61,990 bases of DNA, from the NCBI GenBank assembly GCA_019745315.1, contig JAIETH010000005.1, positions 1 through 61,990 of the forward strand, given 5' to 3'. Origin of the DNA: Patescibacteria group bacterium (GTDB taxonomy: Bacteria > Patescibacteriota > Minisyncoccia > Phycocordibacterales > UBA918). The translations under genes were made by a program, and so were the position numbers. Positions 2,892 through 14,589 of this stretch are shown here, one piece after another. The notes under the pieces were generated by a model. It did not search any database. It saw only the letters and a list, made by a program, of their open reading frames with translations, and had not been told where the DNA came from. Position 1 is the first letter of the stretch, and each line of letters opens with the position of its first letter.

Positions 2892-3806
2892 ATGAGTATA
2901 CAAGAAGCAATACGCGAATTTCTTCAATATCTTGAGATAGAAAAAGGTCGTTCTGCAAAGACTATAGATAACTATGGGCACTACCTCGAACGTTTTGTTG
3001 TGTATTCTAAGATCAAAGCCCCGGCTGATATAACAGAAGTCCTTATTCGTGAGTACCGTGTATGGCTTAATCGCCAGCCGGGCACAAAGGTTGGTAGGAA
3101 TATAGAGACAATGAAGCGACGCACCCAAAATTACTACCTTATTGCGCTTCGTGCTTTTCTTAAGTTTTTGCGTAAGCGTGGTATTGAGTCTGTTTCTCCT
3201 GAGCGTATTGAGCTGGCGAAGGTTGGCGAGCGTCATCTTGACCTTATTACTGAAGCTGAATTAAATCGCCTCCTTGATGCCCCTGACGTAAAAAGTACAC
3301 AAGGAATGCGTGATCGCGCAATTTTAGAGCTCCTTTTCTCTACTGGTCTTCGCGTATCCGAGCTCTGCGCCCTTTCAATTGATGATGTTGATCTCTCTCG
3401 TGATGAATTTTCAGTGCGTGGGAAAGGAGATAAGGTTCGTGTAGTTTTCTTAACAGAGGCTGCGAAGCGCTGTATTAAAGAGTACTTGGCTTCGCGAAAA
3501 GATATGGACGATGCGATGTTTGTGCAGTATGGAAAAAACGCTAAAAATGCGAAAGAATTACGCCTCACAGTGCGCGCGGTGCAGAGACTTGTGAAATTCT
3601 ATGCTGCGAAGGCAGGTATTACGCGCAAGGTAACCCCTCACGTTATTCGCCACAGCTTTGCGACGGATTTATTAGGAAATGGTGCTGACCTCCGCTCGGT
3701 ACAAGCGCTCTTGGGGCATGCGAATATCGCGACAACTCAGATCTATACGCATGTCACTGACTCACATCTCCGCGAAGTGCATAAAAAATTCCACTCAAGA
3801 AAATAA
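2892..3806 (+). CDS. xerC: XerC/XerD-family tyrosine recombinase (paralogue identity cannot be resolved)
   Basis: RDRAILELLFSTGLRVSEL, HVIRHSFATDLL, LGHANIATTQIYTH: the catalytic R-H-R-H-Y set is intact. Confidence 0.92.
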   Translation: MSIQEAIREFLQYLEIEKGRSAKTIDNYGHYLERFVVYSKIKAPADITEVLIREYRVWLNRQPGTKVGRNIETMKRRTQNYYLIALRAFLKFLRKRGIESVSPERIELAKVGERHLDLITEAELNRLLDAPDVKSTQGMRDRAILELLFSTGLRVSELCALSIDDVDLSRDEFSVRGKGDKVRVVFLTEAAKRCIKEYLASRKDMDDAMFVQYGKNAKNAKELRLTVRAVQRLVKFYAAKAGITRKVTPHVIRHSFATDLLGNGADLRSVQALLGHANIATTQIYTHVTDSHLREVHKKFHSRK

Positions 3807-6645: not shown

Positions 6646-8124
6646 TTATCCGACGTGGTATTTCTTATGGATTTCTTTGATGGCGCCCCGCTCCTCTTCT
6701 CTTTGCTTCTCTCTACCCTGCTCTCCAAGCGAAATTAGCTCTTCAAGCGGCATTTTCATAAGTACTAAAGCCCTACTCTCTAGGTAGTCCTCTGTGTTTT
6801 TGAGTGGATCTTCTAAAACCTCTTCAAGTAATGCGTGGAGTGTATGACCAAGCTTTGGTCCAGGCTTCTCAGCGCTCAGTTCCATGATGCGAGAACCATC
6901 AATCTTAAGCATTTTGACAGTAATAGGGTCTCGAAGAGCTTCTTCTACCATTGCGATATACTTTCTGAGTCGAAATGGCTGTTCTTTTGGTCGTCCTGTC
7001 CCTACGCGGTCGCAGATTCTGAGGTTAAGTAAATCCCATATATTTTCTTGTCCTACGTTTCGTATCGTTCTTCTGACCGCTGAGAGCGTTACTTCGTCTG
7101 GATCTGAGAAGAACATATGCCAACGAACCAAGTTTGCCACCTTTTCAACTGTTTCACGTGGAAACTTAAGCTCTTGGAGAGCCTTCTTTGTTACACGTGA
7201 ACCCACAACCTCGTGTCCGTGGAAGCTCCAGTCTTTCTTTTCTTCCGCCCAGCGCCGTGTTTCTGGCTTAGAAATATCATGAAACAGTGCAGCGAGGCGA
7301 ATTTCGAGTGACCAACCCTTGTCAGCCGCATGTTGAAGTGTGCGCACGAGGTGCTCATACACATCAAAGGCATGAGCTTGGTTTTGAGAAACACCAATAC
7401 TTCGCAGTACATCCGGCGCAACATACGGGAGCATACCAAGCTTTTCAAGCAAAATAATGCCCTGCATAGGCTGTTTTGATTCCAATATTCGCACAAATTC
7501 GTCTCGAATACGTTCTTTTGATATCCGACTTAGATTATTTGCATTTTTAGCTATAGCGGCCATTGTGGCTCCTTCTAGGGTCAGCTCAAGTTCCACGACA
7601 AGTCGAACTGCGCGCATCATACGAAGTGCGTCTTCTGCAAAGCGGTCACGAGCTACTCCTACTGCACGGAGGCGTCTATCTTTTAGATCGGCTTGGCCAT
7701 CGAAAAGATCTATAAATTCAGCTGTTTTTGGGCGATATGCAATAGCGTTTATGGTGAAATCACGTCGTTTGAGGTCATCTTCTATCGAGGTGCTGAAGAG
7801 GACGCTATCAGGTCTTCTAGCATCTGAATATGTTGATTCAATGCGGTACGGGGTTACTTCTATGACTTTTACCCGTGGATCGAGCGCTTCCTCGTATACG
7901 ACTCCAATTGTGCCGAATTCGTTGTTTTGATAGGTATGCTCAAAAAGACTGACTATTTCTTCCGGTCGTGCGTTCGTTGTGATATCCCAGTCCTTAGGCA
8001 GCCTTTTTATTAAAAGATCACGGACGCACCCCCCTACTAAATATGCTTCAAACCCACCTTTTTCTAACGTTTCTGCTACATCTAAAACCTCGCGTGGAAT
8101 ATCAGATAGGGTGATCGTTGACAT
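6646..8124 (-). CDS. cca: CCA-adding tRNA nucleotidyltransferase with HD domain
   Basis: LVGGCVRD, DWDITT, RRDFTINA, EDALRMMRA, ERIRDE, LFHDISK. The tRNA genes in this window do not encode CCA. Confidence 0.9.
   Translation of the reverse strand: MSTITLSDIPREVLDVAETLEKGGFEAYLVGGCVRDLLIKRLPKDWDITTNARPEEIVSLFEHTYQNNEFGTIGVVYEEALDPRVKVIEVTPYRIESTYSDARRPDSVLFSTSIEDDLKRRDFTINAIAYRPKTAEFIDLFDGQADLKDRRLRAVGVARDRFAEDALRMMRAVRLVVELELTLEGATMAAIAKNANNLSRISKERIRDEFVRILESKQPMQGIILLEKLGMLPYVAPDVLRSIGVSQNQAHAFDVYEHLVRTLQHAADKGWSLEIRLAALFHDISKPETRRWAEEKKDWSFHGHEVVGSRVTKKALQELKFPRETVEKVANLVRWHMFFSDPDEVTLSAVRRTIRNVGQENIWDLLNLRICDRVGTGRPKEQPFRLRKYIAMVEEALRDPITVKMLKIDGSRIMELSAEKPGPKLGHTLHALLEEVLEDPLKNTEDYLESRALVLMKMPLEELISLGEQGREKQREEERGAIKEIHKKYHVG
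7150..7204. other. Two parS-like sites inside cca
   Basis: TGTTTCACGTGGAAAC (7150-7165) and TGTTACACGTGAACCC (7189-7204), against consensus TGTTNCACGTGAAACA. Confidence 0.45.
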
Positions 8125-8271
8125 TGCATGTATTTTAGTATCATTTTTGCATTTTAGCTACTTTAAACGTATGATTCTAGTGCTGAAGAAAGAGTCTGCT
8201 TGTATGACCTTCGGTCATACAAGGGCTGCGCTCAAAGAAAATATAAGCAAGCTTCTACTTTCTTCTCGCTT

Positions 8272-8343
8272 GCCCTTGTAGTGAAATGGATATCACTATA
8301 GTCTTCGGAACTATCATTCTAGGTTCGAATCCTGGCGGGGGCA
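8272..8343 (+). tRNA. tRNA-Arg(UCG)
   Basis: Acceptor GCCCTTG/CGGGGGC, D stem GTGA/TCAC, anticodon arm ATAGT-CTTCGGA-ACTAT, T arm CTAGG-TTCGAAT-CCTGG. Confidence 0.93.
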
Positions 8344-8795
8344 CAAAGGTAACAAAAAAACACCAACTTCACTGGTGTTTTTTTGTTAAAACGAAAACTG
8401 CTTTGCGTTTGTGCCTTTGTGCCAAACGGAAACATGTTTTATTTATAAAACAGTTGAGTTCGGGGAGGAAGTTCTTAATGAGCAAAGCGAATTTAGAAAC
8501 TTGACCCCACAAAAATAAGGTATTTTCAGAGATTATATGGCTCAACAAGAACGCAAAAAGCCCATCATGTAAACATGAGGGCTTTTTGTGACGCAACTAT
8601 TAAGAAATACGTCAGGTGAAGTGACTCTTAGCTTTTTATAAAGCATATAAGCCAATTCTTTAAAGAACAGAATCGGCGCCGTGTGCGCCGAGGGTACTTT
8701 ATAACACGCGCTCCGAGTCGTGTCATGTGGATTATGCACTTCCGCACCATATACTGGATTTAGCGATGGTCTGTAGTATAATCTGAGCTACATTT

Positions 8796-8866
8796 GCGGG
8801 TATGGTTTAGTGGTAGAACACGTCCTTGCCAAGGACGAGTCGAGAGTTCGATTCTCTCTACCCGCA
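8796..8866 (+). tRNA. tRNA-Gly(GCC)
   Basis: Acceptor GCGGGTA/TACCCGC, anticodon arm CGTCC-TTGCCAA-GGACG, T arm GAGAG-TTCGATT-CTCTC. TATAAT at 8777-8782. Confidence 0.96.
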
Positions 8867-9182
8867 CAAAGGAGCGAAGCGACTATTGTGCGCTGGCGCT
8901 ACTGCGCCAGTAGGAGGAATCGAAGACCTTGCGAGCTAGCTTTTCAAGCTTTTGTGCAGAAAAGTAGCCACAAGGTGTACTGAACATGTAATGTTCGATT
9001 CTCTCTACCCGCACAAATAAGCGAAGCGTTTTAGGTGGGTAAGCAAGACGCGGGGCGTCTTGCGTGGGAGAATCGAACGGCGGAGCGGGACCCGTGCTTG
9101 CACGGGAGCGAGCCGTGTCCCGCGGCACTTATGAGCGAAGCGAATTAGTGACCGTCAGGACGATTCTCTCTACCCGCACAAA
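8867..9182 (+). repeat. tRNA-appended palindromic repeat module with two units (core A and core B)
   Basis: Direct copies of the tRNA 3' end at 8993-9017 and 9161-9182, partial inverted copies at 8886-8924 and 9066-9077, and three GCGAAGC. Confidence 0.85.
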
Positions 9183-9240
9183 AACGTCAAAAAAGACTAG
9201 CGATACCGCTAGTCTTTTTTGATCACACTGCGTCTTTTAC

Positions 9241-9400
9241 ACATACAGTTTCAAAATATCAATAAAAAGCCTATAAAATATAAGCAGATTGTCCACACGG
9301 TAGGGGTACATAGACCTGTGCATAAGACAGGGGATATGTGTATAAAGGACGTCTTTTATATAATTGTTTTTTAACAAATGGCTTAAAATAAGGCTTTTTA
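9241..9400. promoter_or_regulatory. DnaA-box cluster with AT-rich flanks (oriC candidate)
   Basis: TTGTCCACA 9289-9297, TGTGCATAA 9317-9325, TGTGTATAA 9337-9345. AT-rich 9241-9288 and 9351-9400. Confidence 0.45.
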
Positions 9401-9876
9401 AAAAAGACAAGTTTCATGTGAAACAGAGTATATTTCTCAAAAATGTGAAAAAAGAAGCAAAACATTTACGCATTGGAAGAATTGGAGAGCGGGCTGTGGC
9501 CAATCACCTCAAAAGGAAGGGATTTACAGAACTTGAATCAAACTTCCGTACTAAGACAGGAGAAATTGATCTTATCTTCAGAAAAGAAGAAAAAGTTTAC
9601 TTCGTAGAAGTTAAGACTGTCTCTGTTGAGAGTGGGAGAGCTTCTGTTTCATATGAAACAGAGGGTGGGGGGTACAGAGATGTTTCACGTGGAATATATA
9701 GACCGGAGGATAATGTGCATCATGATAAGTTACGAAAGATTCTTAATACCATTCAAGTATGGATATCTTTGAATAAGTATGAGGGTTTGTGGCAGCTTGA
9801 TATTGCTTCTGTATATCTTGACCTTAAGGATAAGCGCGCACAGGTACGTTTCATAGAAAATATCATAGTGGAGTAA
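9364..9876 (+). CDS. yraN: YraN family (UPF0102) PD-(D/E)xK nuclease-like protein; start uncertain
   Basis: GRIGERAVANHL, NFRTKTGEIDLI, YFVEVKT, WQLDIASV. Confidence 0.85.
   Translation: MFFNKWLKIRLFKKDKFHVKQSIFLKNVKKEAKHLRIGRIGERAVANHLKRKGFTELESNFRTKTGEIDLIFRKEEKVYFVEVKTVSVESGRASVSYETEGGGYRDVSRGIYRPEDNVHHDKLRKILNTIQVWISLNKYEGLWQLDIASVYLDLKDKRAQVRFIENIIVE
9410..9696. other. Three parS-like sites within the yraN ORF
   Basis: AGTTTCATGTGAAACA 9410-9425; TGTTTCATATGAAACA 9645-9660 (perfect palindrome); TGTTTCACGTGGAATA 9681-9696. Confidence 0.7.
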
Positions 9877-9969
9877 AGGACATCGAATGTCCTTTAGAGA
9901 ATTTTGTTTTTTGTGCGTTCTAACGCTTGGCTTTCTTTAATGGTGCGTGCTACTATGTTGCAACAAAAG

Positions 9970-10040
9970 CGGGGCGTAGTATACCGGTAGTACGTCTGGT
10001 TTGGGACCAGATAGACCGAGTTCGATTCTCGGCGCCCCGA
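9970..10040 (+). tRNA. tRNA-Pro(UGG)
   Basis: Acceptor CGGGGCG/CGCCCCG plus A73, anticodon arm TCTGG-TTTGGGA-CCAGA, T arm CCGAG-TTCGATT-CTCGG. Confidence 0.95.
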
Positions 10041-10227
10041 ACGTAGTGAGGAAGAAAAAGCGGAGCTTTTGTCCGAGAATCGAAAGCCGGAGCGGTGCCG
10101 ACCAAGGGTCGGCCGCGAGGCAGGGCTGTAAGCACTTAGTATTTTGAGCAAAGCGATAAATACTTAGTGACTTATGGCCGATTCGGCGCCCCGAACGTAG
10201 TGAGGGAAAAGCACGTTCCGAGCTTTT
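10041..10227 (+). repeat. tRNA-appended palindromic repeat module (core B)
   Basis: Inverted T-arm copy CCGAGAATCGAA at 10073-10084. The 23-nt direct repeat TCGGCGCCCCGAACGTAGTGAGG is at 10029-10051 and 10183-10205. Confidence 0.85.
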
Positions 10228-10243
10228 CATTTCACGTGAAACA
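10228..10243. other. parS-like site (intergenic)
   Basis: CATTTCACGTGAAACA, 14/16 match to TGTTTCACGTGAAACA. Confidence 0.65.
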
Positions 10244-10358
10244 CATGTTATATACATTAAGAAGAAGGTTCTGCTTAAGCAGCCTCGTTTCTCCTTCTCT
10301 GCCTGTTTTGGAAAGGAGTCGTCGTTTGGTACGTCTTTATATATAATGGTTCCACCAT

Positions 10359-10907
10359 ATGGCGAAAGAAACGTCACAAGAAGCTGGAGGAACCCAAGAG
10401 GATCGGTTTTTGAAAGCATTTGATGAATACGCAGACGCGCTCTTTCGTCATGCGACGATGCGGCTCTCTGATAGGGAGCGTGCCATAGAGCTTGTACACG
10501 ACACTTTCACAAAGGCGTGGACTTACGCAAACAATGGCAATCTAATTGAGTCGTATCGTCCGTTTCTATATAAAATACTCGGAAATCTAATAATTGATGA
10601 GTATAGACGAAGACGTACAGAATCTCTTGATTCAATCCTTGAAGAAGAGGGAATGGATACTGGGAGGTTTAGAGATCTCCAGGAGGGTTCGCTTGAAGAG
10701 TCTCTTGCTGCTCTTGATGCAAAGCGCATCATAGAAGCCATGGAGAAGCTCCCGGCAATTTACAAGGAGACCCTCGTTCTCCGTTTCGTTGATGGATTGG
10801 GACCAAAAGAGATAGCAACCCTTATTGAAGAGACGGAGAATGTTGTTTCTGTTCGATTGAATAGGGGAATGAGCTTGCTACGAGAGATTGTGACAAAAAA
10901 AGAATAA
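10359..10907 (+). CDS. ECF-type (group 4) sigma-70 factor
   Basis: Region 2 AIELVHDTFTKAW...PFLYKILGNLIIDEYRR; region 4 LPAIYKETLVLRFVDGLGPKEIATLI...VSVRLNRG. Confidence 0.9.
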   Translation: MAKETSQEAGGTQEDRFLKAFDEYADALFRHATMRLSDRERAIELVHDTFTKAWTYANNGNLIESYRPFLYKILGNLIIDEYRRRRTESLDSILEEEGMDTGRFRDLQEGSLEESLAALDAKRIIEAMEKLPAIYKETLVLRFVDGLGPKEIATLIEETENVVSVRLNRGMSLLREIVTKKE

Positions 10908-10910
10908 TTC

Positions 10911-12242
10911 ATGGGAATGTTAGAAAAAAAACTAAAAAGTGAACTCGGGAAAATACACATGCGTGCTTCTGAGCGTATCTTTTTGCGTGAACGGCTTCTT
11001 GCATACATGGAATATCATGATCGTAAAAATTTTCATGCATCATCAGCGATTCAAGATAGGGTAGTGGGATTCTTTGCAGATTTCTATGCTTCGTATTTAA
11101 ATACATCTCAAGCACGCGGTGCCTTTGGCGTTGTTGCACTTCTGGTAGTAGTTAGTATTCCTTTTTCTGCCGAGTCGTCAGTTCCTGGGGATGTTTTGTA
11201 TCCAGTAAAGGTGCGCGTAAATGAAGAAGTGCGCTCAGGATTAACTTTTTCTCCGTATGAAAAAGTTGCGTGGGAGGCAAAACGCGCAGAGCGACGTATT
11301 GGCGAGGCGCGTGTCCTTGCAAAGGAAGGCCGTCTTACCAATGAGGTTGAGGCTGAGTTGACTGAAACCATGAAGGGGCATGTTGCCGATGCTCAAAAAG
11401 AAATGGCGGTTCTACGCGAAAGCGATGCTGATGGAGCAGCTATTGCGCAGGTTGCAATGGAATCTGCTCTTGAGCTGCAGACTGCAGTTCTTGATACTGA
11501 TATTTCTACTCAGGCATCGTCTTCAGTCCCTGGAGAAAGTCATATGGCAACCTTGGCTCTTGCTGTGCGTGATGTTCATGCGTCACTTGTTGTTTCCGAG
11601 CCAGAGGTATCAGTTTCAGCATATGATCGCTTTACTCTCAAGGTTGCAGAATCAATGAAATATGCAAAGGAGCTCGAGTCTTCTCTTCTTCCGACTTTGA
11701 CAGAAGGGGAATCATTCGAAATAAATCGTCGACTTTCTGATATAGAGAATACTGTTTCTGCGGCTCACACATTGCATGCCTCAAGCACTACACAAGGAGG
11801 ATTGCGAGACTTAAAGGCCGCATTCAGTGATATACAAAAACTCATTGCTTTTATGTCAGATATCGAGGTGCGTCGATCTGTTGCAATTGAGAAACTTGTA
11901 CCGAAGCAGCTCACGGATGAAGATAGAAAAGAAATTCTCTGGGCTGCTCATGCAGAGCTTCTGGGCACCGTAGAATTAGTATCATTGCGTCTTGCTTCAT
12001 CAACGGCAGAACAAGGGGTGCGGGATGTTCAGTCCACAACAATAGCGCAGCTGCAAGAACAGCTTGATATAGTAAGTCGCCAACTTGAAGAAGGAGGTTC
12101 TTTAAACGAAGCAGAGTTTGCGCTTAACGCAGCACGAGTACTCTCCCACACACTTCTTGGTTCTGTAGATCAAATTGATGCACCGGTTGATGAGGCTCCT
12201 GTTTCGGAAGAAGCAACGTCGACACCTCCTCAGGCTCTATAA
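10911..12242 (+). CDS. Putative membrane anti-sigma factor with DUF5667-like helical domain
   Basis: Starts 3 nt after the sigma gene. One TM helix followed by AESSVPGDVLYPVKVRVNEEV. Confidence 0.65.
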   Translation: MGMLEKKLKSELGKIHMRASERIFLRERLLAYMEYHDRKNFHASSAIQDRVVGFFADFYASYLNTSQARGAFGVVALLVVVSIPFSAESSVPGDVLYPVKVRVNEEVRSGLTFSPYEKVAWEAKRAERRIGEARVLAKEGRLTNEVEAELTETMKGHVADAQKEMAVLRESDADGAAIAQVAMESALELQTAVLDTDISTQASSSVPGESHMATLALAVRDVHASLVVSEPEVSVSAYDRFTLKVAESMKYAKELESSLLPTLTEGESFEINRRLSDIENTVSAAHTLHASSTTQGGLRDLKAAFSDIQKLIAFMSDIEVRRSVAIEKLVPKQLTDEDRKEILWAAHAELLGTVELVSLRLASSTAEQGVRDVQSTTIAQLQEQLDIVSRQLEEGGSLNEAEFALNAARVLSHTLLGSVDQIDAPVDEAPVSEEATSTPPQAL

Positions 12243-12248
12243 TAAGGA

Positions 12249-13295
12249 TTATTGAGAAAGAATGTGAGCAGCTTTAAATCGAGCTGCTTTTTTCTGTATG
12301 TCGCCTTCAATATTTTCAGAAAGTGTATGGCCGGTTTCTGATAAAAGTATTGTATTTATATAGGAAAGAGTGAGGGCTCGTAAGCTTCCAAGGCCGTCTT
12401 TCTCAGAGTTACCCTTAGTCACTATTATTCCAAGCAGTATGCCTGTATTAGTGGTCACGGGTCCTCCTGATACGCCGTAGTGACCGATGGTGGAAGAGCT
12501 GAGACCAATAACATCAATCTCAGATTCTCCATAAGTAAAAAGTTTCGTAATGCTGACCGTCTCCATATGCTGATTGAGAAGAATATTCGCACTATGCTTC
12601 ATAGCATCTTCTTCCGAGGGATATCCAGCAGCAATTACGCGCATGTCACGCACATCAGTTGGTATTTCTGTGCTAAAGGATATAAAGGGGTATGATGCAG
12701 GCGTGTTGTATCCTGCGCGTGGAGTGATATACAAAAGCGCGTAGTCATATTCTCCGGTGCCTACCAGAGAAGGACGTGCCAGTTCTTTCTTGTTGGCATC
12801 AATCCATTTTTGCGACATATAGAGAATATGTGCTTCGTAAGAATTTCTGCCTGGGTTTCCTGTCCGAACTGCACACGTCGGTTCATGTGTTTCATCAAAT
12901 AGTAGTGATTGAACTACGTGGGCATTCGTAAGGATGACGCCTTTAGGATCGATAACGACGCCACTCCCGCTCGATATATGTACTGCGTCGCCATCTTTGT
13001 GGGTGCATACGATATTAACGAGCGCATCGGCGAGCGCAGGGTCTAGAGTAGGAAGGACTGCATCGCTAAGGGCCGCTGTTTGCGGTATTGATTCAAAAGA
13101 TTCGCTAATTTCTTGAGGGATGTCCGTATACGTTTCCTCCGCGTGGTTATTCTGGGGCACAGAGAAGGTTTTTTGTACCAATACCACGCCATTCCTTACC
13201 TCTTGCACAAGGTATGTTCCCAAATAACCACTCACTGCAAGAAGAATGCTTGCGATGCTCAGTGCAAAATCTAAGAAAAAATGGCTAAAATTCAT
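12249..13295 (-). CDS. Membrane-anchored trypsin-like serine protease
   Basis: GSGVVIDPKGVILTNAHVV (His), YDYALL (Asp), GVSGGPV (Ser), and an N-terminal TM. Confidence 0.8.
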   Translation of the reverse strand: MNFSHFFLDFALSIASILLAVSGYLGTYLVQEVRNGVVLVQKTFSVPQNNHAEETYTDIPQEISESFESIPQTAALSDAVLPTLDPALADALVNIVCTHKDGDAVHISSGSGVVIDPKGVILTNAHVVQSLLFDETHEPTCAVRTGNPGRNSYEAHILYMSQKWIDANKKELARPSLVGTGEYDYALLYITPRAGYNTPASYPFISFSTEIPTDVRDMRVIAAGYPSEEDAMKHSANILLNQHMETVSITKLFTYGESEIDVIGLSSSTIGHYGVSGGPVTTNTGILLGIIVTKGNSEKDGLGSLRALTLSYINTILLSETGHTLSENIEGDIQKKAARFKAAHILSQ

Positions 13296-13466
13296 GCTGG
13301 GAAAAGTATAGCATGATGATAGGATTGGTATTGAAATTCCTTTACAATACCTTTATTTAGTGACTTGATTGTGCATGTGGTTTAGAGTGTGATACACTAC
13401 CGCAGGTATGGAAAATCCATGCTGACTACGCTCTAAGAGGGCGTTTATTAGTCTAAAGAAAACAAC

Positions 13467-13565
13467 ATGGTTAACTTTTTCAATGATGAAGAGGTAGTAG
13501 TTGACGGAGAAGAGACTCCTGAAGATGAGGAGGCTACTGAGGCTACAGAAGAAGACGCTGCATAA
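13467..13565 (+). CDS. 32-aa extremely acidic small protein (not in the ORF track)
   Basis: MVNFFNDEEVVVDGEETPEDEEATEATEEDAA*. Upstream TG-A-TACACT promoter-like element and a terminator at 13567-13602. Confidence 0.6.
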   Translation: MVNFFNDEEVVVDGEETPEDEEATEATEEDAA

Positions 13566-13566
13566 T

Positions 13567-13602
13567 AAAAGCAAAACTCCGCATATGCGGAGTTTTGCTT
13601 TT
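13567..13602 (+). terminator. Terminator after the small acidic ORF
   Basis: AAAAGCAAAACTCCGCAT/ATGCGGAGTTTTGCTTTT perfect inverted repeat. Confidence 0.7.
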
Positions 13603-13666
13603 ATTTTAAGCCAGATATGGTAGAATCGCTGTGTTGCGTTAGATGGTGGGGTAGTAGAAAAATATT

Positions 13667-13737
13667 GCGGGGTTAGTTTACCGGTAAAACATCTGCCTTC
13701 CAAGCAGAGGTAGAGGGTTCAATTCCCTCACCCCGCA
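13667..13737 (+). tRNA. tRNA-Gly(UCC)
   Basis: Acceptor GCGGGGT/ACCCCGC, anticodon arm TCTGC-CTTCCAA-GCAGA, T arm GAGGG-TTCAATT-CCCTC. Confidence 0.96.
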
Positions 13738-13983
13738 CCGAGCGAAGCGAGGAGAAAAAACAGCCTGCAAGGGCTGTTTTTTCCTGCGGGGTGAGGGAAT
13801 TGAAAACCTTGCGAGCTATCTTTTCGAGCTTGCGAAGAAAAGTAGCTGAATAGCACAGGGTTCTATTCAGAGGTGTACTGATCCTGTAAGGATCAATCAC
13901 ACTATCCGCACCAACGAAAAAGAGCCCGTTAGGGCTCTTTTTCCTGCGGGGTGAGGGAATTGAACGGGGACGAGGTCAATTCC
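13738..13983 (+). repeat. tRNA-appended palindromic repeat module (core A)
   Basis: Perfect 20-nt inverted copies of tRNA 13718-13737 at 13785-13804 and 13945-13964. Degenerate direct copy at about 13891-13912. Confidence 0.85.
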
Positions 13984-14063
13984 TTAAAATATAACAACTT
14001 GCTCTCGGCAATTTTACCTGTATTGTTATTGAAGGCGACTCAATGCCTCATCGAGGGAGAGAA

Positions 14064-14480
14064 ATGATGTCCAGCTCTGCGACGGCTGTAACGGAATTTG
14101 AAATCGCCCTTGAGAGGGTGAAGAAGGGCGTAGCGTGGCTTGATGAGAAAGCGAAGACTGACCCGCGGTTTCTGCGGTGGCGACTCATGTTGATGAGTAT
14201 CTATGGGTCGCGTGTCAGTTCTCTGGTGAAGATTGAGTATAATACGCACGACCCTATTTCTCTGATTCTTCGCGAACATCCCGGCTTGGCCTGCTTGAGC
14301 GATGGTCGTGTGAAATGGGCAACGGTGAAGCATGCTTTTTTCAGAAGCAAGCACGATGGGGATCCGGTTGAGCTGGGTTTCGATTCGGATAACGCGGTTT
14401 CTGCTCAGGCACTCAATCATGCCTGGGCGCAAATCTTGTCGGAGTATGATCTGCCGACGGCGATCCGCCACTTCCCCTAG
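14064..14480 (+). CDS. Hypothetical accessory protein, GC-richer than its neighbours
   Basis: Open frame with SD-like GAGGGAG before ATG 14064. RVKKGVAWLDEK and GF...LNHAWAQIL segments. Confidence 0.65.
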   Translation: MMSSSATAVTEFEIALERVKKGVAWLDEKAKTDPRFLRWRLMLMSIYGSRVSSLVKIEYNTHDPISLILREHPGLACLSDGRVKWATVKHAFFRSKHDGDPVELGFDSDNAVSAQALNHAWAQILSEYDLPTAIRHFP

Positions 14481-14589
14481 ACAGATCTTTTGAAGCAATA
14501 CTCTACGTCAAAAACGCAGGGTATTTTTAATTTTTGCATTACACTACAGAATTACATTATTCTATATCTGTACCCATAAACTACTTTTT

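Follow-up and report, generated by a model that had tools for sequence, protein, structure and literature searches.

The window, a 61,990-nucleotide stretch of a Patescibacteria genome, carries units of about 150 nt behind tRNA-Gly(GCC), tRNA-Pro(UGG) and tRNA-Gly(UCC), and also behind tRNA-Arg(TCG), which lay outside the range of a preliminary description of the locus (Table 1). Each unit starts with a spacer hairpin, which is followed by the tRNA 3' end in inverted copy, by a structured core and by the same 3' end in direct copy. This layout, which the preliminary description had proposed for three of the tRNAs, is confirmed by exact matches evaluated against shuffled sequences: CGATTCTCTCTACCCGCACAAA has exact matches at 8849, 8996 and 9161, with 0 occurrences expected in 100 shuffles, and TGCGGGGTGAGGGAATTGAA, found exactly at 13785-13804 and 13945-13964, is the reverse complement of 13718-13737, again with 0 expected by chance. 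The tRNA-linked inverted and direct copies are real and far above chance; for at least 13 of the 36 tRNAs of the genome, the 3' end is repeated 140-250 nt downstream of the gene, and such copies are found nowhere else in the genome. Many units sit downstream of intrinsic terminators, and the tRNAs and the direct copies have a trailer motif in common. The modules matched no family in an Rfam search of the window.

Table 1. Features of the tRNA-linked units in the window (positions are those of the window).
Feature	Position	Strand	Basis or remarks
Xer-type recombinase gene of the source genome	2892-3806		
tRNA-Arg(TCG)	8272-8344	+	ARAGORN and Rfam; module behind
Module behind tRNA-Arg, type-B-like variant	8390-8515	+	sequence
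tRNA-Gly(GCC)	8796-8867	+	ARAGORN and Rfam, 71.9 bits; CCA not encoded
36-nt repeat, copy 1	8846-8881	+	T-loop to tRNA 3' end, then trailer with GAGCGAAGCGA mini-hairpin motif
147-nt unit (spacer, inverted arm, core A, direct copy)	8873-9019	+	absent in L061-L064
Unit 1, 5' arm	8889-8924	+	imperfect inverted copy (TGCG...TAGGAGGAATCGAA)
Type A core, three-way junction	8912-9010	+	R1 match, 90.1 bits; covariation; fold
Direct copy 1 of tRNA-Gly(GCC) 3' end and trailer	8993-9028	+	repeat search, shuffles
Unit 2, 5' arm	9035-9077	+	folds
Type B core	~9078-9157	+	GGCGGAGCG, hairpin, GCGAGCC, GTCCCGCGG, hairpin with GAGCGAAGCGA tip, CCGTCAGGAC
Direct copy 2 of tRNA-Gly(GCC) 3' end	9158-9182	+	repeat search, shuffles
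Intrinsic-terminator-like hairpin closing the Gly-GCC array	9187-9222	+	16-nt perfect arms, then T run
tRNA-Pro(UGG)	9970-10040	+	ARAGORN and Rfam
154-nt Pro unit	10045-10198	+	absent in L061, L062; present in L063, L064
Hairpin AAAAGC-GGA-GCTTTT, GT, inverted copy CCGAGAATCGAA	10056-10084	+	sequence
Type B core, Pro unit	10085-10177	+	fold, z = -3.4
Direct copy of tRNA-Pro 3' end and trailer, ACGTAGTGAGG	10178-10210	+	T-loop part 2 nt shorter
tRNA-Gly(UCC)	13667-13739	+	ARAGORN and Rfam
Trailer motif GAGCGAAGCGA, then terminator-like hairpin X1	13740-13784	+	sequence
Inverted copy 1 of tRNA 3' end, perfect, 20 nt	13785-13804	+	exact match
Type A core, extra hairpin within P2	13805-13892	+	R1 match 13792-13907, 42.1 bits
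160-nt unit (core A, decayed direct copy, X2, inverted copy)	13805-13964	+	absent in L199
Decayed direct copy (TCAATCACACTATCCGCACC)	13893-13912	+	sequence, repeat search
Terminator-like hairpin X2	13917-13944	+	sequence
Inverted copy 2, perfect, 21 nt	13945-13965	+	exact match
Type C core with 28-nt deletion, then 8-nt direct copy TCAATTCC	13966-13983	+	comparison with strain L199

The fidelity of the copies differs among the loci. Behind tRNA-Gly(GCC), the blocks at 8846-8881 and 8993-9028 are 94% identical, trailer included, but the inverted copy of unit 1 is only 73% complementary over 22 nt, and in the fold its arm is split by the hairpin CTGGCGC-TACT-GCGCCAG (8893-8910). The type A core of this unit comprises P1, CGAAG, P2 (8927-8976), GUACU and P3 (8982-8996, loop UGUAA), with P3 stacked on the 3' strand of P1, and folds at -42.7 kcal/mol (z = -3.6). 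The arm of unit 2 (fold at -74.7 kcal/mol, z = -5.6) is composed of the acceptor complement GTGGGTA, an A, the 9-bp hairpin P0 with a GGG loop (9043-9063), GT and the T-stem/T-loop complement GGGAGAATCGAA; the type B core that follows, a relative of the core in the Pro unit, also stands behind tRNA-Thr(GGT) at another place in the genome. The inverted arm reported for tRNA-Pro is present but limited to an exact complement of the T-loop and the 3' strand of the T-stem (12/12, 10073-10084), and the direct copy includes 28 nt at 93% identity (10183-10210). At tRNA-Gly(UCC), the two inverted copies form the perfect 20-nt pair that had been described, but the direct copy is decayed and the second unit is truncated; the stems of X1 and X2 differ by compensatory changes. 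The full type C core, CCGACAGTGCGGGGCACTGTCGCGCCGAGGGACGAGG, is found in strain L199, and the same core lies behind tRNA-Gln elsewhere in the genome. In the tRNA-Arg module, CCTTTGTGCC complements the tRNA end and trailer (GGCACAAAGG), and a long hairpin bears GAGCAAAGCGA at its tip.

Comparison of 43 type A copies from 29 genomes showed that type A is 93% paired, with compensatory changes in 25 of the 26 pairs and a covariation score that was reached in none of 500 shuffles; covariation is equally strong in 81 type A copies from named Patescibacteria. These observations demonstrate selection for pairing in the cores. P2 and P3 are nearly all Watson-Crick, with about 2% G-U. On the tRNA-sense strand, G-U pairs outnumber A-C mismatches by 43 to 17, and three stem polymorphisms among strains retain wobble pairing on this strand, which implies that one specific strand folds. 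The 5' arm is stereotyped, namely, acceptor complement, A, P0 hairpin, GT and T-stem complement, so that P0 is placed exactly at the boundary of acceptor and T-stem; P3 adjoins the 3' strand of P1 as the T-stem adjoins the acceptor stem, and, in the folds, the 3' strand of the module is continuous and the discriminator is unpaired. Type A elements are present in 33 of the 41 genomes of the order and absent in 8 (0-40 copies per genome), and they are also found in Saccharibacteria. A same-strand tRNA end lies 31-310 nt upstream in 63 of the 81 copies from named Patescibacteria, the background for such proximity being, by our estimate, about 1.6% of positions in the source genome. The layout of a tRNA followed by a module recurs in more than 30 independent genomes, with arms that fit each local tRNA, and the arrays include truncated and decayed copies. 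These cassettes apparently constitute a widespread and so far undescribed repeat family.

Both parts of the earlier observation that the arms match the tRNA of each locus while the cores are common to several loci hold, and they extend across tRNAs and genera. Core similarity follows neither tRNA type nor genome: one pair of cores is 93% identical despite different tRNAs and different families, and two units 55 kb apart in one genome (G035) have an identical core up to parts of the T-loop, everything outside being local. Within the source genome, there are no identical copies at different loci, and the highest core identity is 87%. Twelve non-Watson-Crick stem positions were informative, and at 10 of them the 5' arm is the complement of the 3' strand and not a copy of the tRNA 5' strand; the G-U pairs of the tRNAs, including G3-U70 of tRNA-Ala, become Watson-Crick pairs in the units. 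In the copies that are not linked to tRNAs, the arms correspond to the final 11-15 nt of the ORF upstream, with no sequence common to these copies.

The comparison of occupied and empty alleles that had been proposed revealed presence or absence of units between near-identical strains. In contigs that are approximately 99% identical to the window, single units bounded by 27-36-nt repeats are precisely missing at all three loci (Table 1), the boundary of the tRNA-Gly(UCC) unit being the 27-nt repeat TTTTTCCTGCGGGGTGAGGGAATTGAA. At two loci the repeat boundaries fall in the direct arm, whereas those of the third locus are in the inverted arm. At the tRNA-Gly(GCC) locus, the trailer reads either CAAAGG or CAAATA, which suggests that two deletions occurred independently. 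At the tRNA-Arg locus of strain L063, another terminator and module take the place of the segment that extends from the end of the tRNA to ~8480, and the window lacks a 37-nt stretch that L061-L063 carry. Members of the genus differ in occupancy, and in another genus the site is empty. The strain polymorphisms are best read as losses, and no gain was observed; the units are lost precisely, through recombination or slippage between the 27-36-nt repeats, and hence the arrays differ among near-identical strains.

We propose, with a probability of roughly 0.45, that these elements are a family of gene-free, non-autonomous, folded DNA cassettes that reside behind tRNAs and, occasionally, ORF ends, with arms templated from the end of the upstream gene. 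Each would consist of a spacer hairpin, a 5' arm complementing the last 12-20 nt of that gene, one of the interchangeable cores (the type A three-way junction, type B or type C), and a direct copy with trailer. Among the three explanations offered in the preliminary description, the best fit is that of a non-autonomous element copying its target, given the presence and absence of units among strains, the local Watson-Crick arms, the tRNA-independent cores and the copies of ORF ends, although no insertion event was caught and it is the copying that we infer. The source genome's lack of very recent identical copies at different loci and the folding of one specific strand also count against the cassette reading. 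A switch in pre-tRNA maturation finds no support, with many units behind terminators, the inverted arm neutralised by the direct copy and the units dispensable between strains, whereas a decoy attB role would be a side effect at most, as the presence of serine recombinases does not follow the number of elements. Among known repeats, REP/BIME elements with RAYT and the dRS3-flanked NIMEs of Neisseria are similarly short, intergenic, palindromic or mosaic repeats located 3' of genes, with few motif types in a stereotyped order and a widely varying copy number; however, the arms of REP and dRS3 are constant within a family whereas those of the modules are locus-specific, and RAYT/Y1 genes are missing in the source genome and do not co-occur with the modules across genomes.

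A search by Pfam domain for a mobilising HUH/RAYT, integrase or reverse transcriptase gene, as had been suggested, yielded none that tracks the elements. The serine recombinase domain PF00239 does not co-occur with element number across the 41 genomes (0 matches in 12 genomes with 3-30 copies; 1-5 matches in four genomes without copies); the reverse transcriptase domain PF00078 was not found in the source genome nor in 31 of the 41 genomes; and PF01797 (Y1 transposase/RAYT) was detected neither in the source genome nor in the 40-copy genome G015. Thus, no serine recombinase, reverse transcriptase or Y1 transposase accompanies the elements. A single Xer-type PF00589 protein per genome is present in 40 of the 41 genomes, element-free ones included.

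The tRNA-like outline of the arm is easier to rationalise for an RNA than for a DNA cassette. The units could be functional tRNA-like RNAs, produced by read-through or as transcripts of their own, in which the acceptor and T stems of the host tRNA are retained, P0 stands in for the D arm and the anticodon arm and the T-loop is replaced by the core, so that the cloverleaf-like molecule is handled by tRNA-processing enzymes and serves as a processing or stability element or as a decoy for factors that recognise the acceptor and T-arm of a given tRNA. The proximity to tRNAs on the same strand, the stereotyped 5' arm with its 7-nt acceptor complement, the continuous 3' strand and unpaired discriminator, the position of P3 against P1, the common trailer motif, the bias towards wobble pairs on the sense strand, which the strain polymorphisms retain, and the strong covariation are all compatible with this possibility. 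A stack resembling the acceptor stem and T-arm, with a 3' strand identical to that of the tRNA, is likewise found beside genuine tRNA genes in the t-elements of plant mitochondria and in mascRNA. However, in the modules the T-loop is paired away and the tRNA G-U pairs have turned Watson-Crick, which indicates that faithful tRNA mimicry is not maintained; moreover, the units are dispensable among near-identical strains and absent from 8 of the 41 related genomes, many lie behind terminators with no visible -10 box, some are truncated or decayed, copies not linked to tRNAs exist, G-U pairs are rare in P2 and P3, and no Rfam family is matched. On balance, we consider a functional RNA rather unlikely.

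An unlikely alternative is that the units are folded single-strand attachment sites, in which the arms would pair in single-stranded DNA and rebuild the duplex of the tRNA gene 3' end; the single Xer-type recombinase of the host, or another recombinase, would then exchange a single strand between unit and tRNA gene, and the product would be resolved by replication. Such exchange in the direct arm predicts the observed order of tRNA, spacer, inverted arm, core, direct copy and chromosomal trailer, as well as tandem arrays of mixed units; the stem would need target-identical Watson-Crick arms, and one specific strand folds. The attC sites of integrons, including the long, branched VCR-type attC of Vibrio, are also imperfect palindromes that act as a folded single strand, with an inverse-core/core pair around a variable, sometimes branched, centre, and form tandem interchangeable units in which a boundary repeat is common with the next unit. 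In contrast to integrons, the modules have neither an integron integrase nor attI, neither an ORF nor the RYYYAAC/GTTRRRY consensus, and it is their centre that is conserved, whereas the stems are copies of the neighbouring gene end that differ per locus. In CTX-phage-type IMEX, with a hairpin attP of two inverted dif-like sites and host XerCD, the insert likewise has an inverted and a direct target copy at one of its ends, a host recombinase would act here as well, the predicted order of the product fits and tandem integration is possible; yet the modules are 150 nt long and gene-free, no dif-like sequence was identified in them, and the target, instead of one fixed site, is the 3' end of any one of 15 or more tRNAs, or even the end of an ORF. 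A recombinase would thus face no constant stem sequence, Xer is equally present where the elements are absent, the movement of cores between tRNAs is unexplained, and the varying boundaries of the polymorphic units resemble homology-driven rather than site-specific exchange.

It appears still less probable that the units are remnants or helpers of tRNA-targeting islands, that is, deleted island ends mobilised in trans, or additional attB landing pads or decoys for the islands with large serine recombinases of this genome. Integrative elements that target the T-loop sublocation of tRNA and tmRNA genes do leave direct repeats from the T-loop past the 3' end into the trailer, with the gene-adjacent copy keeping the tRNA intact, and type A units whose arms resemble tRNA-Trp and tRNA-Glu are found ~12.9 kb downstream of these two tRNAs, with resolvase-domain genes in between. 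The modules, however, possess no cargo, no unit in the window contains or flanks an integrase gene, their copy number reaches 40 per 1-Mb genome, resolvase-domain genes do not follow their distribution, and none of the 14 IMG/VR contigs that match a 16-base type A pattern carries a true type A element. As the preliminary description noted, ordinary att duplication leaves an inverted copy unexplained, and so it does the covarying cores. An assembly artefact, in which repeats of this metagenome-assembled genome would be collapsed or chimeric, is extremely improbable: although the source assembly is the only one to show the type A unit of the tRNA-Gly(GCC) locus, with no exact match to its junctions in JGI metagenome contigs, and contigs often break at such loci (L061 ends within tRNA-Gly(UCC)), assemblies made independently from other samples also contain the type B unit, the Pro unit and the Gly-UCC inverted copy, and the locus-matched architecture recurs in dozens of genomes.

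Under the cassette reading, new units would arise, and their arms would stay matched to the neighbouring gene, by template-directed copying that employs host replication and repair functions. Template-switch mutagenesis at quasipalindromes is established in E. coli, where it is a source of point and cluster mutations; to our knowledge, it has not been recognised as a route by which a repeat family builds its arms. Here, such enzyme-free rewriting of one arm of an inverted repeat from the other, or fold-back, might generate the inverted arm and could hold it complementary to the selected tRNA 3' end. The core could be acquired at the conserved sequence of the T-loop, through gene conversion or through template switching over short homology, and the direct copy through direct-repeat conversion. 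Purely passive copying would leave the covariation unexplained because strong covariation requires selection for the fold. If the copying is indeed template-directed and performed by host functions, a dedicated sequence-specific recombinase would be unnecessary. The inverted arm, by neutralising the extra tRNA 3' end in any read-through RNA, may also render the cassette harmless.

The direct and inverted repeats that the preliminary description had placed behind the tRNA genes proved to be exact. A 22-mer, CGATTCTCTCTACCCGCACAAA, occurs three times at the tRNA-Gly(GCC) locus, and a 20-mer, TGCGGGGTGAGGGAATTGAA, the reverse complement of which lies inside tRNA-Gly(UCC), occurs twice; zero occurrences are expected in shuffled sequence in either case. 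The duplicated block, 36 nt long at Gly-GCC and 28 nt at Pro, starts in the T-loop, passes the tRNA end and continues into a trailer that carries a mini-hairpin motif (GAGCGAAGCGA / GAACGTAGTGA). Throughout the host genome (771 kb, 15 contigs of which C3 is the window, 44% G+C), at least 13 of the 36 tRNA genes have their own last 18 nt copied 140-250 nt downstream, and no such copies exist elsewhere in the genome. The trailer motif, GARCRWAGYGA, which amounts to a C-GNA-G mini-hairpin flanked by G-A, has 27 copies in the genome, whereas its reversed control has 8; 10 of the 27 begin within 0-6 nt past a tRNA 3' end, and others immediately follow direct copies or form the ends of core hairpins. 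The motif could be a processing signal or a crossover site. CCA is not encoded in any of the window's four tRNA genes, and a gene for the CCA-adding enzyme, with PolyA_pol, HD and tRNA_NucTran2_2 domains in the contig annotation, adjoins the tRNA cluster.

The repeated units are 147-160 nt long, contain no plausible ORF and have a fixed order of parts, which, read 5' to 3' on the tRNA strand, consists of the trailer, a spacer hairpin that is often terminator-like (A-run, hairpin, T-run), a 5' arm that is the complement of the tRNA 3' end, the core, and the direct copy followed again by the trailer. When complete, the 5' arm begins with a 7-nt complement of the acceptor 3' strand, an A and a 9-bp hairpin (P0) with a YGGGR loop, and continues with GT and the complements of the T-stem (5 nt) and the T-loop (7 nt); at least 11 clean cases of this stereotyped arm were found across different genomes, including the second Gly-GCC unit of the window. 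P0 marks the point where an acceptor-like helix meets a T-stem-like one; the bases of the T-loop are paired, and the G-U pairs of the tRNA are lost. The arm is contiguous and perfect over 20-21 nt in the Gly-UCC units and is cut down to 12 nt, namely, the T-loop and T-stem, in the Pro unit. Behind tRNA-Arg(TCG), a terminator is followed by a type-B-like module, the arm of which complements the tRNA end and trailer, not the T-arm. A perfect 21+21-nt palindrome (AATAAAAGCAAAACTCCGCAT / ATGCGGAGTTTTGCTTTTATT) between a 32-aa ORF and tRNA-Gly(UCC) appears to be a bidirectional terminator, and a parS-like palindrome, GTTTCAYGTGAAAC, has two copies within yraN and one immediately past the tRNA-Pro unit.

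Features of the tRNA cluster and its repeat units, with positions in the window
Feature	Position	Strand	Remark
Tyrosine recombinase gene	2892-3806
CCA-adding enzyme gene	6646-8124	-
tRNA-Arg(TCG)	8272-8344	+ (tRNA strand)	tRNA gene call
Terminator and type-B-like module	8346-8520
tRNA-Gly(GCC)	8796-8867	+	tRNA gene call
22-mer CGATTCTCTCTACCCGCACAAA	8849, 8996, 9161
GARCRWAGYGA motif	8872, 9133, 10039, 10146, 10193, 13740
Type A core	8912-9010, 13792-13907		three-way junction
Full 5' arm, second Gly-GCC unit	9035-9077
Type B core	about 9078-9157, 10085-10177		also in second unit 3' of tRNA-Thr(GGT)
GTTTCAYGTGAAAC palindrome	9411-9428, 9646-9663, 10229-10246
yraN	9445-9876
G-run GGGTGGGGGG in yraN	9664-9673
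tRNA-Pro(UGG)	9970-10040	+	tRNA gene call
21+21-nt palindrome	13564-13605
tRNA-Gly(UCC)	13667-13739	+	tRNA gene call
20-mer TGCGGGGTGAGGGAATTGAA	13785, 13945
160-nt segment variable between strains	13805-13964
Type C core, truncated	13966-13975

Three core families were distinguished. In type A, the elements follow one another as P1 (formed by both arms), CGAA(R), a long P2 with a bulged internal loop, GUACUGA and P3, which has a UGUAA loop and is directly adjoined by the 3' strand of P1. A covariance model of this type was built on 17 copies of this genome. Among 43 copies from 29 genomes, 93% of the cells are paired and 25 of the 26 pairs have changed on both sides, with a covariation score that none of 500 shuffles and no slid register approached; the 81 further copies from named MAGs give the same pairing picture. 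Support for the type A fold suffices for proposing it to RNA or repeat databases as a new family, and that the fold is under selection we regard as settled. Pairing in P2 and P3 is nearly all Watson-Crick (G-U, about 2%); on the tRNA-sense strand overall, G-U outnumbers A-C (43 vs 17), and three stem polymorphisms between strains keep wobble pairing on that strand, which indicates that one particular strand folds, as RNA or as single-stranded DNA. The type B folds are convincing (z = -5.6 and -3.4); the 11 collected copies were too heterogeneous to align well and yielded no covariance model, so type B is delimited by pairwise similarity and single-sequence folds only. Type C, a P0-like hairpin plus GCCGAGGGACGAGG, is truncated in the window and whole in a sister strain. 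In a permissive Rfam scan of 8000-14500, the four tRNAs alone exceeded the gathering score, with no match on the modules or on types A, B and C. A hammerhead-like reading of the CGAA and CUGA junctions, attempted by hand, was rejected, as the strands that join the three helices do not come in the required order and N7-G8-A9 lacks conservation.

We likewise consider it settled that the 3' end of the neighbouring gene is the source of the closing arms; the cores are not local. Pairwise identity among the 33 cores with known hosts is 0.71 for the same tRNA in different genomes and, for different tRNAs, 0.70 between genomes and 0.69 within one genome, and the nearest neighbour of a core nearly always belongs to another tRNA and another genus; with no clustering of cores by tRNA, tRNA-specific element lineages are ruled out. 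Thus, a tRNA-Leu(GAG) unit of another family is 93% identical to a tRNA-Tyr unit of this genome, P0 hairpin included, and a Ser(GGA) core is 91% identical to a Glu(CTC) core. In one relative (G035), tRNA-Val and tRNA-Leu units 55 kb apart have a common core with stem differences that are all compensatory; the homology starts and stops exactly at the T-loop-derived bases, and local sequence makes up the spacer, the T-stem portion of the inverted arm and the direct copy. Where tRNA-Arg(TCT) differs in its T- and acceptor stems between the two species of the genus, the differences are mirrored in both arms of the unit. Since the complement of the acceptor 3' strand resembles the tRNA 5' strand, tRNAs with G-U or mismatched stems were used for the finer comparison. 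At nine informative T-stem positions, the 5' arm has the Watson-Crick complement in six, the tRNA 5' base in two and neither in one, and all four placeable acceptor positions have the Watson-Crick complement; for tRNA-Ala, the best match upstream of the unit has A, not G, opposite U70. A unit that is a degenerate copy of the whole tRNA, with the tRNA 5' strands as its 5' arm, is rejected by these data, as 10 of 12 informative positions follow the 3'-strand complement. Judged from these positions, the inverted arm is apparently a templated complement of the 3' strand of the gene.

Occupied and empty alleles, the comparison of which the preliminary description had proposed, were available in contigs of other samples that encode identical neighbouring proteins and are ~99% identical to the window, and whole units proved to be present or absent between these strains at Gly-GCC, Pro and Gly-UCC. 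The 147-nt type A unit of tRNA-Gly(GCC) is absent in all four such contigs (L061-L064) and the 154-nt tRNA-Pro unit in two of the four; a 160-nt segment at tRNA-Gly(UCC) is missing from a fifth contig, in which the type C core is intact. The unit boundaries fall within repeats of 36, 28 and 27 nt, the boundary repeat at the third locus, Gly-UCC, being the inverted arm and not the direct copy. Two trailer variants at Gly-GCC, CAAAGG and CAAATA, are each kept in one pair of the unit-less strains, most simply through two independent deletions with different crossover points; accordingly, the strain-level change that we see is loss, not gain. That the units are unstable via their own repeats is, in our opinion, settled as well. 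Downstream of tRNA-Arg(TCG), one near-identical strain (L063) has another terminator and module, and three strains have a 37-nt stretch, AAACTGTAAAGCCCGTCCCCTGCTCATATTTGTGACC, that is not in the window. In the interval between tRNA-Pro and the sigma factor gene, this genome has one unit, of type B, and the other species of the genus has two different ones; in three genomes of another genus, the interval is empty. Core-less inverted/direct palindromes, that is, empty landing sites, were not found in the genome. In yraN, the G-run GGGTGGGGGG is one G longer in L063 and in another of these strain contigs, L064, splitting the YraN-family gene of these assemblies into ORFs of 86 and 74 aa; a phase-variable tract and a homopolymer sequencing error are both possible.

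Copies that match the type A model number 0-40 per genome and occur in 33 of the 41 genomes of the order, representing 19 of 26 genera, with 26 copies in this genome and 40 in its relative G015. A 16-base pattern searched in one genome per species gave at least 119 loci. Among the matches listed, the true matches to the type A model all come from Patescibacteria (Kaiser-, Taylor-, Zambryski-, Nomura- and Lloydbacteria, Paceibacterota, Minisyncoccia and many Saccharibacteria), and those of the 16-base pattern in other phyla, as well as all 14 on viral contigs, are chance matches; 63 of the 81 type A copies listed have a same-strand tRNA end 31-310 nt upstream, and 8 of the remaining 18 are at contig starts. 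In an even sample of the phylum, the model is matched in at least 2 of 301 genomes, a lower bound because 13 candidates were scored per genome. The family is, then, abundant but patchy. An exact search of metagenome contigs for the junction of the Gly-GCC type A unit found none, and a looser one found the same layout 3' of tRNA-Gly(CCC) in one unrelated CPR genome. We consider it settled that the units are genuine and make up one or more widespread families of small structured cassettes.

The association with tRNAs is not one of principle. Copies of type A also occur 3' of the groEL stop codon and of another ORF, where the last 11-15 nt of the ORF stand in for the tRNA end, with the inverted copy past a short loop and the direct copy past the core, again in tandem. 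Two more type A copies lie ~12.9 kb downstream of tRNA-Trp and tRNA-Glu(TTC), one with a tRNA-Trp-like direct copy and the other with an inverted arm matching the Glu T-arm; resolvase-domain genes lie in between, and we read the two copies as the far ends of islands. Free-standing nuclease genes may be attracted by tRNA genes in this genome too: ORFs immediately 3' of tRNA-Cys and tRNA-Met (contig C1, ~49.9 kb; contig C5, ~14.9 kb) have motifs, recognised by eye, that we take to be those of HNH-type and LAGLIDADG-type homing endonucleases. Two tandem arrays (L001 in G013 and L011 in G001) have as their last unit a 100% identical duplicate of the one before it, cut within P2 and with unrelated sequence past the cut; either a recent duplication plus deletion or an assembly join would account for each.

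A partner enzyme of the kind suggested earlier, namely, a co-occurring HUH/RAYT, integrase or RT gene, did not emerge from domain searches of the 41 genomes. Resolvase-domain genes (PF00239) are present in 23 of the 41 and are unrelated to the number of elements, with none in twelve genomes with 3-30 units and one to five in four genomes without units. This genome and 31 of the 41 lack the RT domain (PF00078, RVT_1); the Y1 transposase domain (PF01797, Y1_Tnp), which neither this genome nor the 40-copy G015 has, shows no co-occurrence over the 41 genomes. This phyletic pattern rules out a serine recombinase, an RT or a Y1 transposase as the mobiliser. A match to Phage_integrase (PF00589) was found in 40 of the 41 genomes, unit-less ones included, and is limited to exactly one protein in 34; the only tyrosine recombinase of this genome is XerD/XerC/XerA-like, is encoded ~5 kb upstream of the tRNA cluster and arrays, and scores far below integron-integrase cut-offs.

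Comparison with known systems is instructive. Integrons have IntI with an adjacent attI and cassette array, whereas here arrays occur at many loci beside one Xer-type PF00589 protein; attC sites end in RYYYAAC/GTTRRRY, whereas the arms of the units are locus-specific, consisting of the local tRNA 3' end (GTTCGAWTC...) or ORF end. An attC site functions as a folded single strand; in the units, covariation is strong and G-U exceeds A-C on one strand, the folded molecule being RNA or DNA. REP/BIME sequences have a cognate RAYT (Y1 HUH) gene, but genomes with 26 and 40 units lack PF01797. MITEs have terminal inverted repeats that are constant within a family, duplicate a short target site and are related to an autonomous IS; the units have locus-specific terminal arms, a duplication of 27-36 nt and no transposase that we could find. 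Like tRNA-targeting integrative elements, the units are bounded by a direct repeat of the tRNA 3' end, but they contain no integrase, do not track with a serine recombinase and come with no extra tyrosine recombinase. As in the hairpin attP of CTX-type IMEX, the inverted and direct arms pair, the 5' arm being the Watson-Crick complement of the target; the target of IMEX, however, is dif bound by Xer, and those of the units are many different tRNA and ORF ends. Repeats produced by retroelements involve an RT and CCA in the copied tRNA ends, in contrast to the units, which have the genomic trailer in place of CCA in a genome that lacks PF00078. Finally, t-elements and other tRNA-like structures have an acceptor stem and a T-arm with T-loop that RNase P, RNase Z or the CCA enzyme recognises; the units have an acceptor-like and a T-stem-like helix, with a hairpin between the two, but a paired T-loop and none of the retained G-U pairs of the tRNA. 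The membership tests fail for integron attC, REP/RAYT, MITEs, integrase att scars, CTX-type IMEX and retroelement products alike, and no described REP/MITE family with a known mobiliser, the identity that would have overturned the original proposal, was matched. Searches of the full-text literature turned up no description, and Rfam has no model; we file the units as an apparently undescribed variant among small, non-autonomous intergenic repeat elements, and there is a real chance that their arms are acquired by a new mechanism.

That the arms have no constant sequence, that some targets are not tRNAs, that crossovers vary and that the searches found no co-occurring enzyme all argue against a sequence-specific recombinase. 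We therefore favour a scenario, inferred with neither an intermediate nor a gain having been seen, of template- and homology-driven copying by host functions. The inverted arm would be written from the gene end by fold-back or quasipalindrome template switching, cores would be imported or homogenised through the T-loop bases common to all units, across which templates would switch or gene conversion would act, and the direct copy would be kept identical by direct-repeat conversion. By itself, host copying does not explain the selection on the fold, which could be accounted for if folding promotes copying or renders read-through RNA harmless by sequestering the spare tRNA 3' end. The main rival is that the units act as RNA, in line with the strikingly tRNA-like layout of the arms and the co-orientation of units and tRNAs; yet units are dispensable between strains, lie behind terminators, have lost the G-U pairs and T-loop of the tRNA and include non-tRNA copies. 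A further candidate is a folded single-strand att site, resembling attC or the CTX-phage attP and served by the single Xer protein, which predicts the observed order of parts but is weakened by the lack of any constant sequence in the stem. Bolder, and in our estimation rather doubtful, is the proposition that the units are either a new kind of self-retargeting, gene-free mobile element or a new, expressed class of tRNA-mimicking RNAs that borrow the acceptor and T stems of each host tRNA. A self-retargeting element would have a structured core and rely on host replication and repair only, copying the last 12-20 nt of the upstream gene in both orientations and building from these copies its closing stem and recombination repeats, in effect, a transposition-like process that needs no transposase and is directed at tRNA 3' ends.

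The genomes of Patescibacteria are among the smallest and most streamlined of all bacteria, yet up to 40 units per genome are tolerated there beside single-copy, essential tRNA genes. The frequent contig breaks and the strain heterogeneity at the tRNA loci of CPR assemblies have their explanation in the units, which also give the tRNA-targeting islands of Patescibacteria many more attachment sites, and the type A covariance model provides a lineage marker that can be searched for in other genomes. Units that act as RNA would amount to a large family of tRNA mimics, each specific to its tRNA. If, on the other hand, the arms are templated from the neighbouring gene end, a repeat family would spread or persist without a dedicated enzyme, and the units would show in nature, with unusual clarity, how template-switch or short-homology copying shapes genomes.
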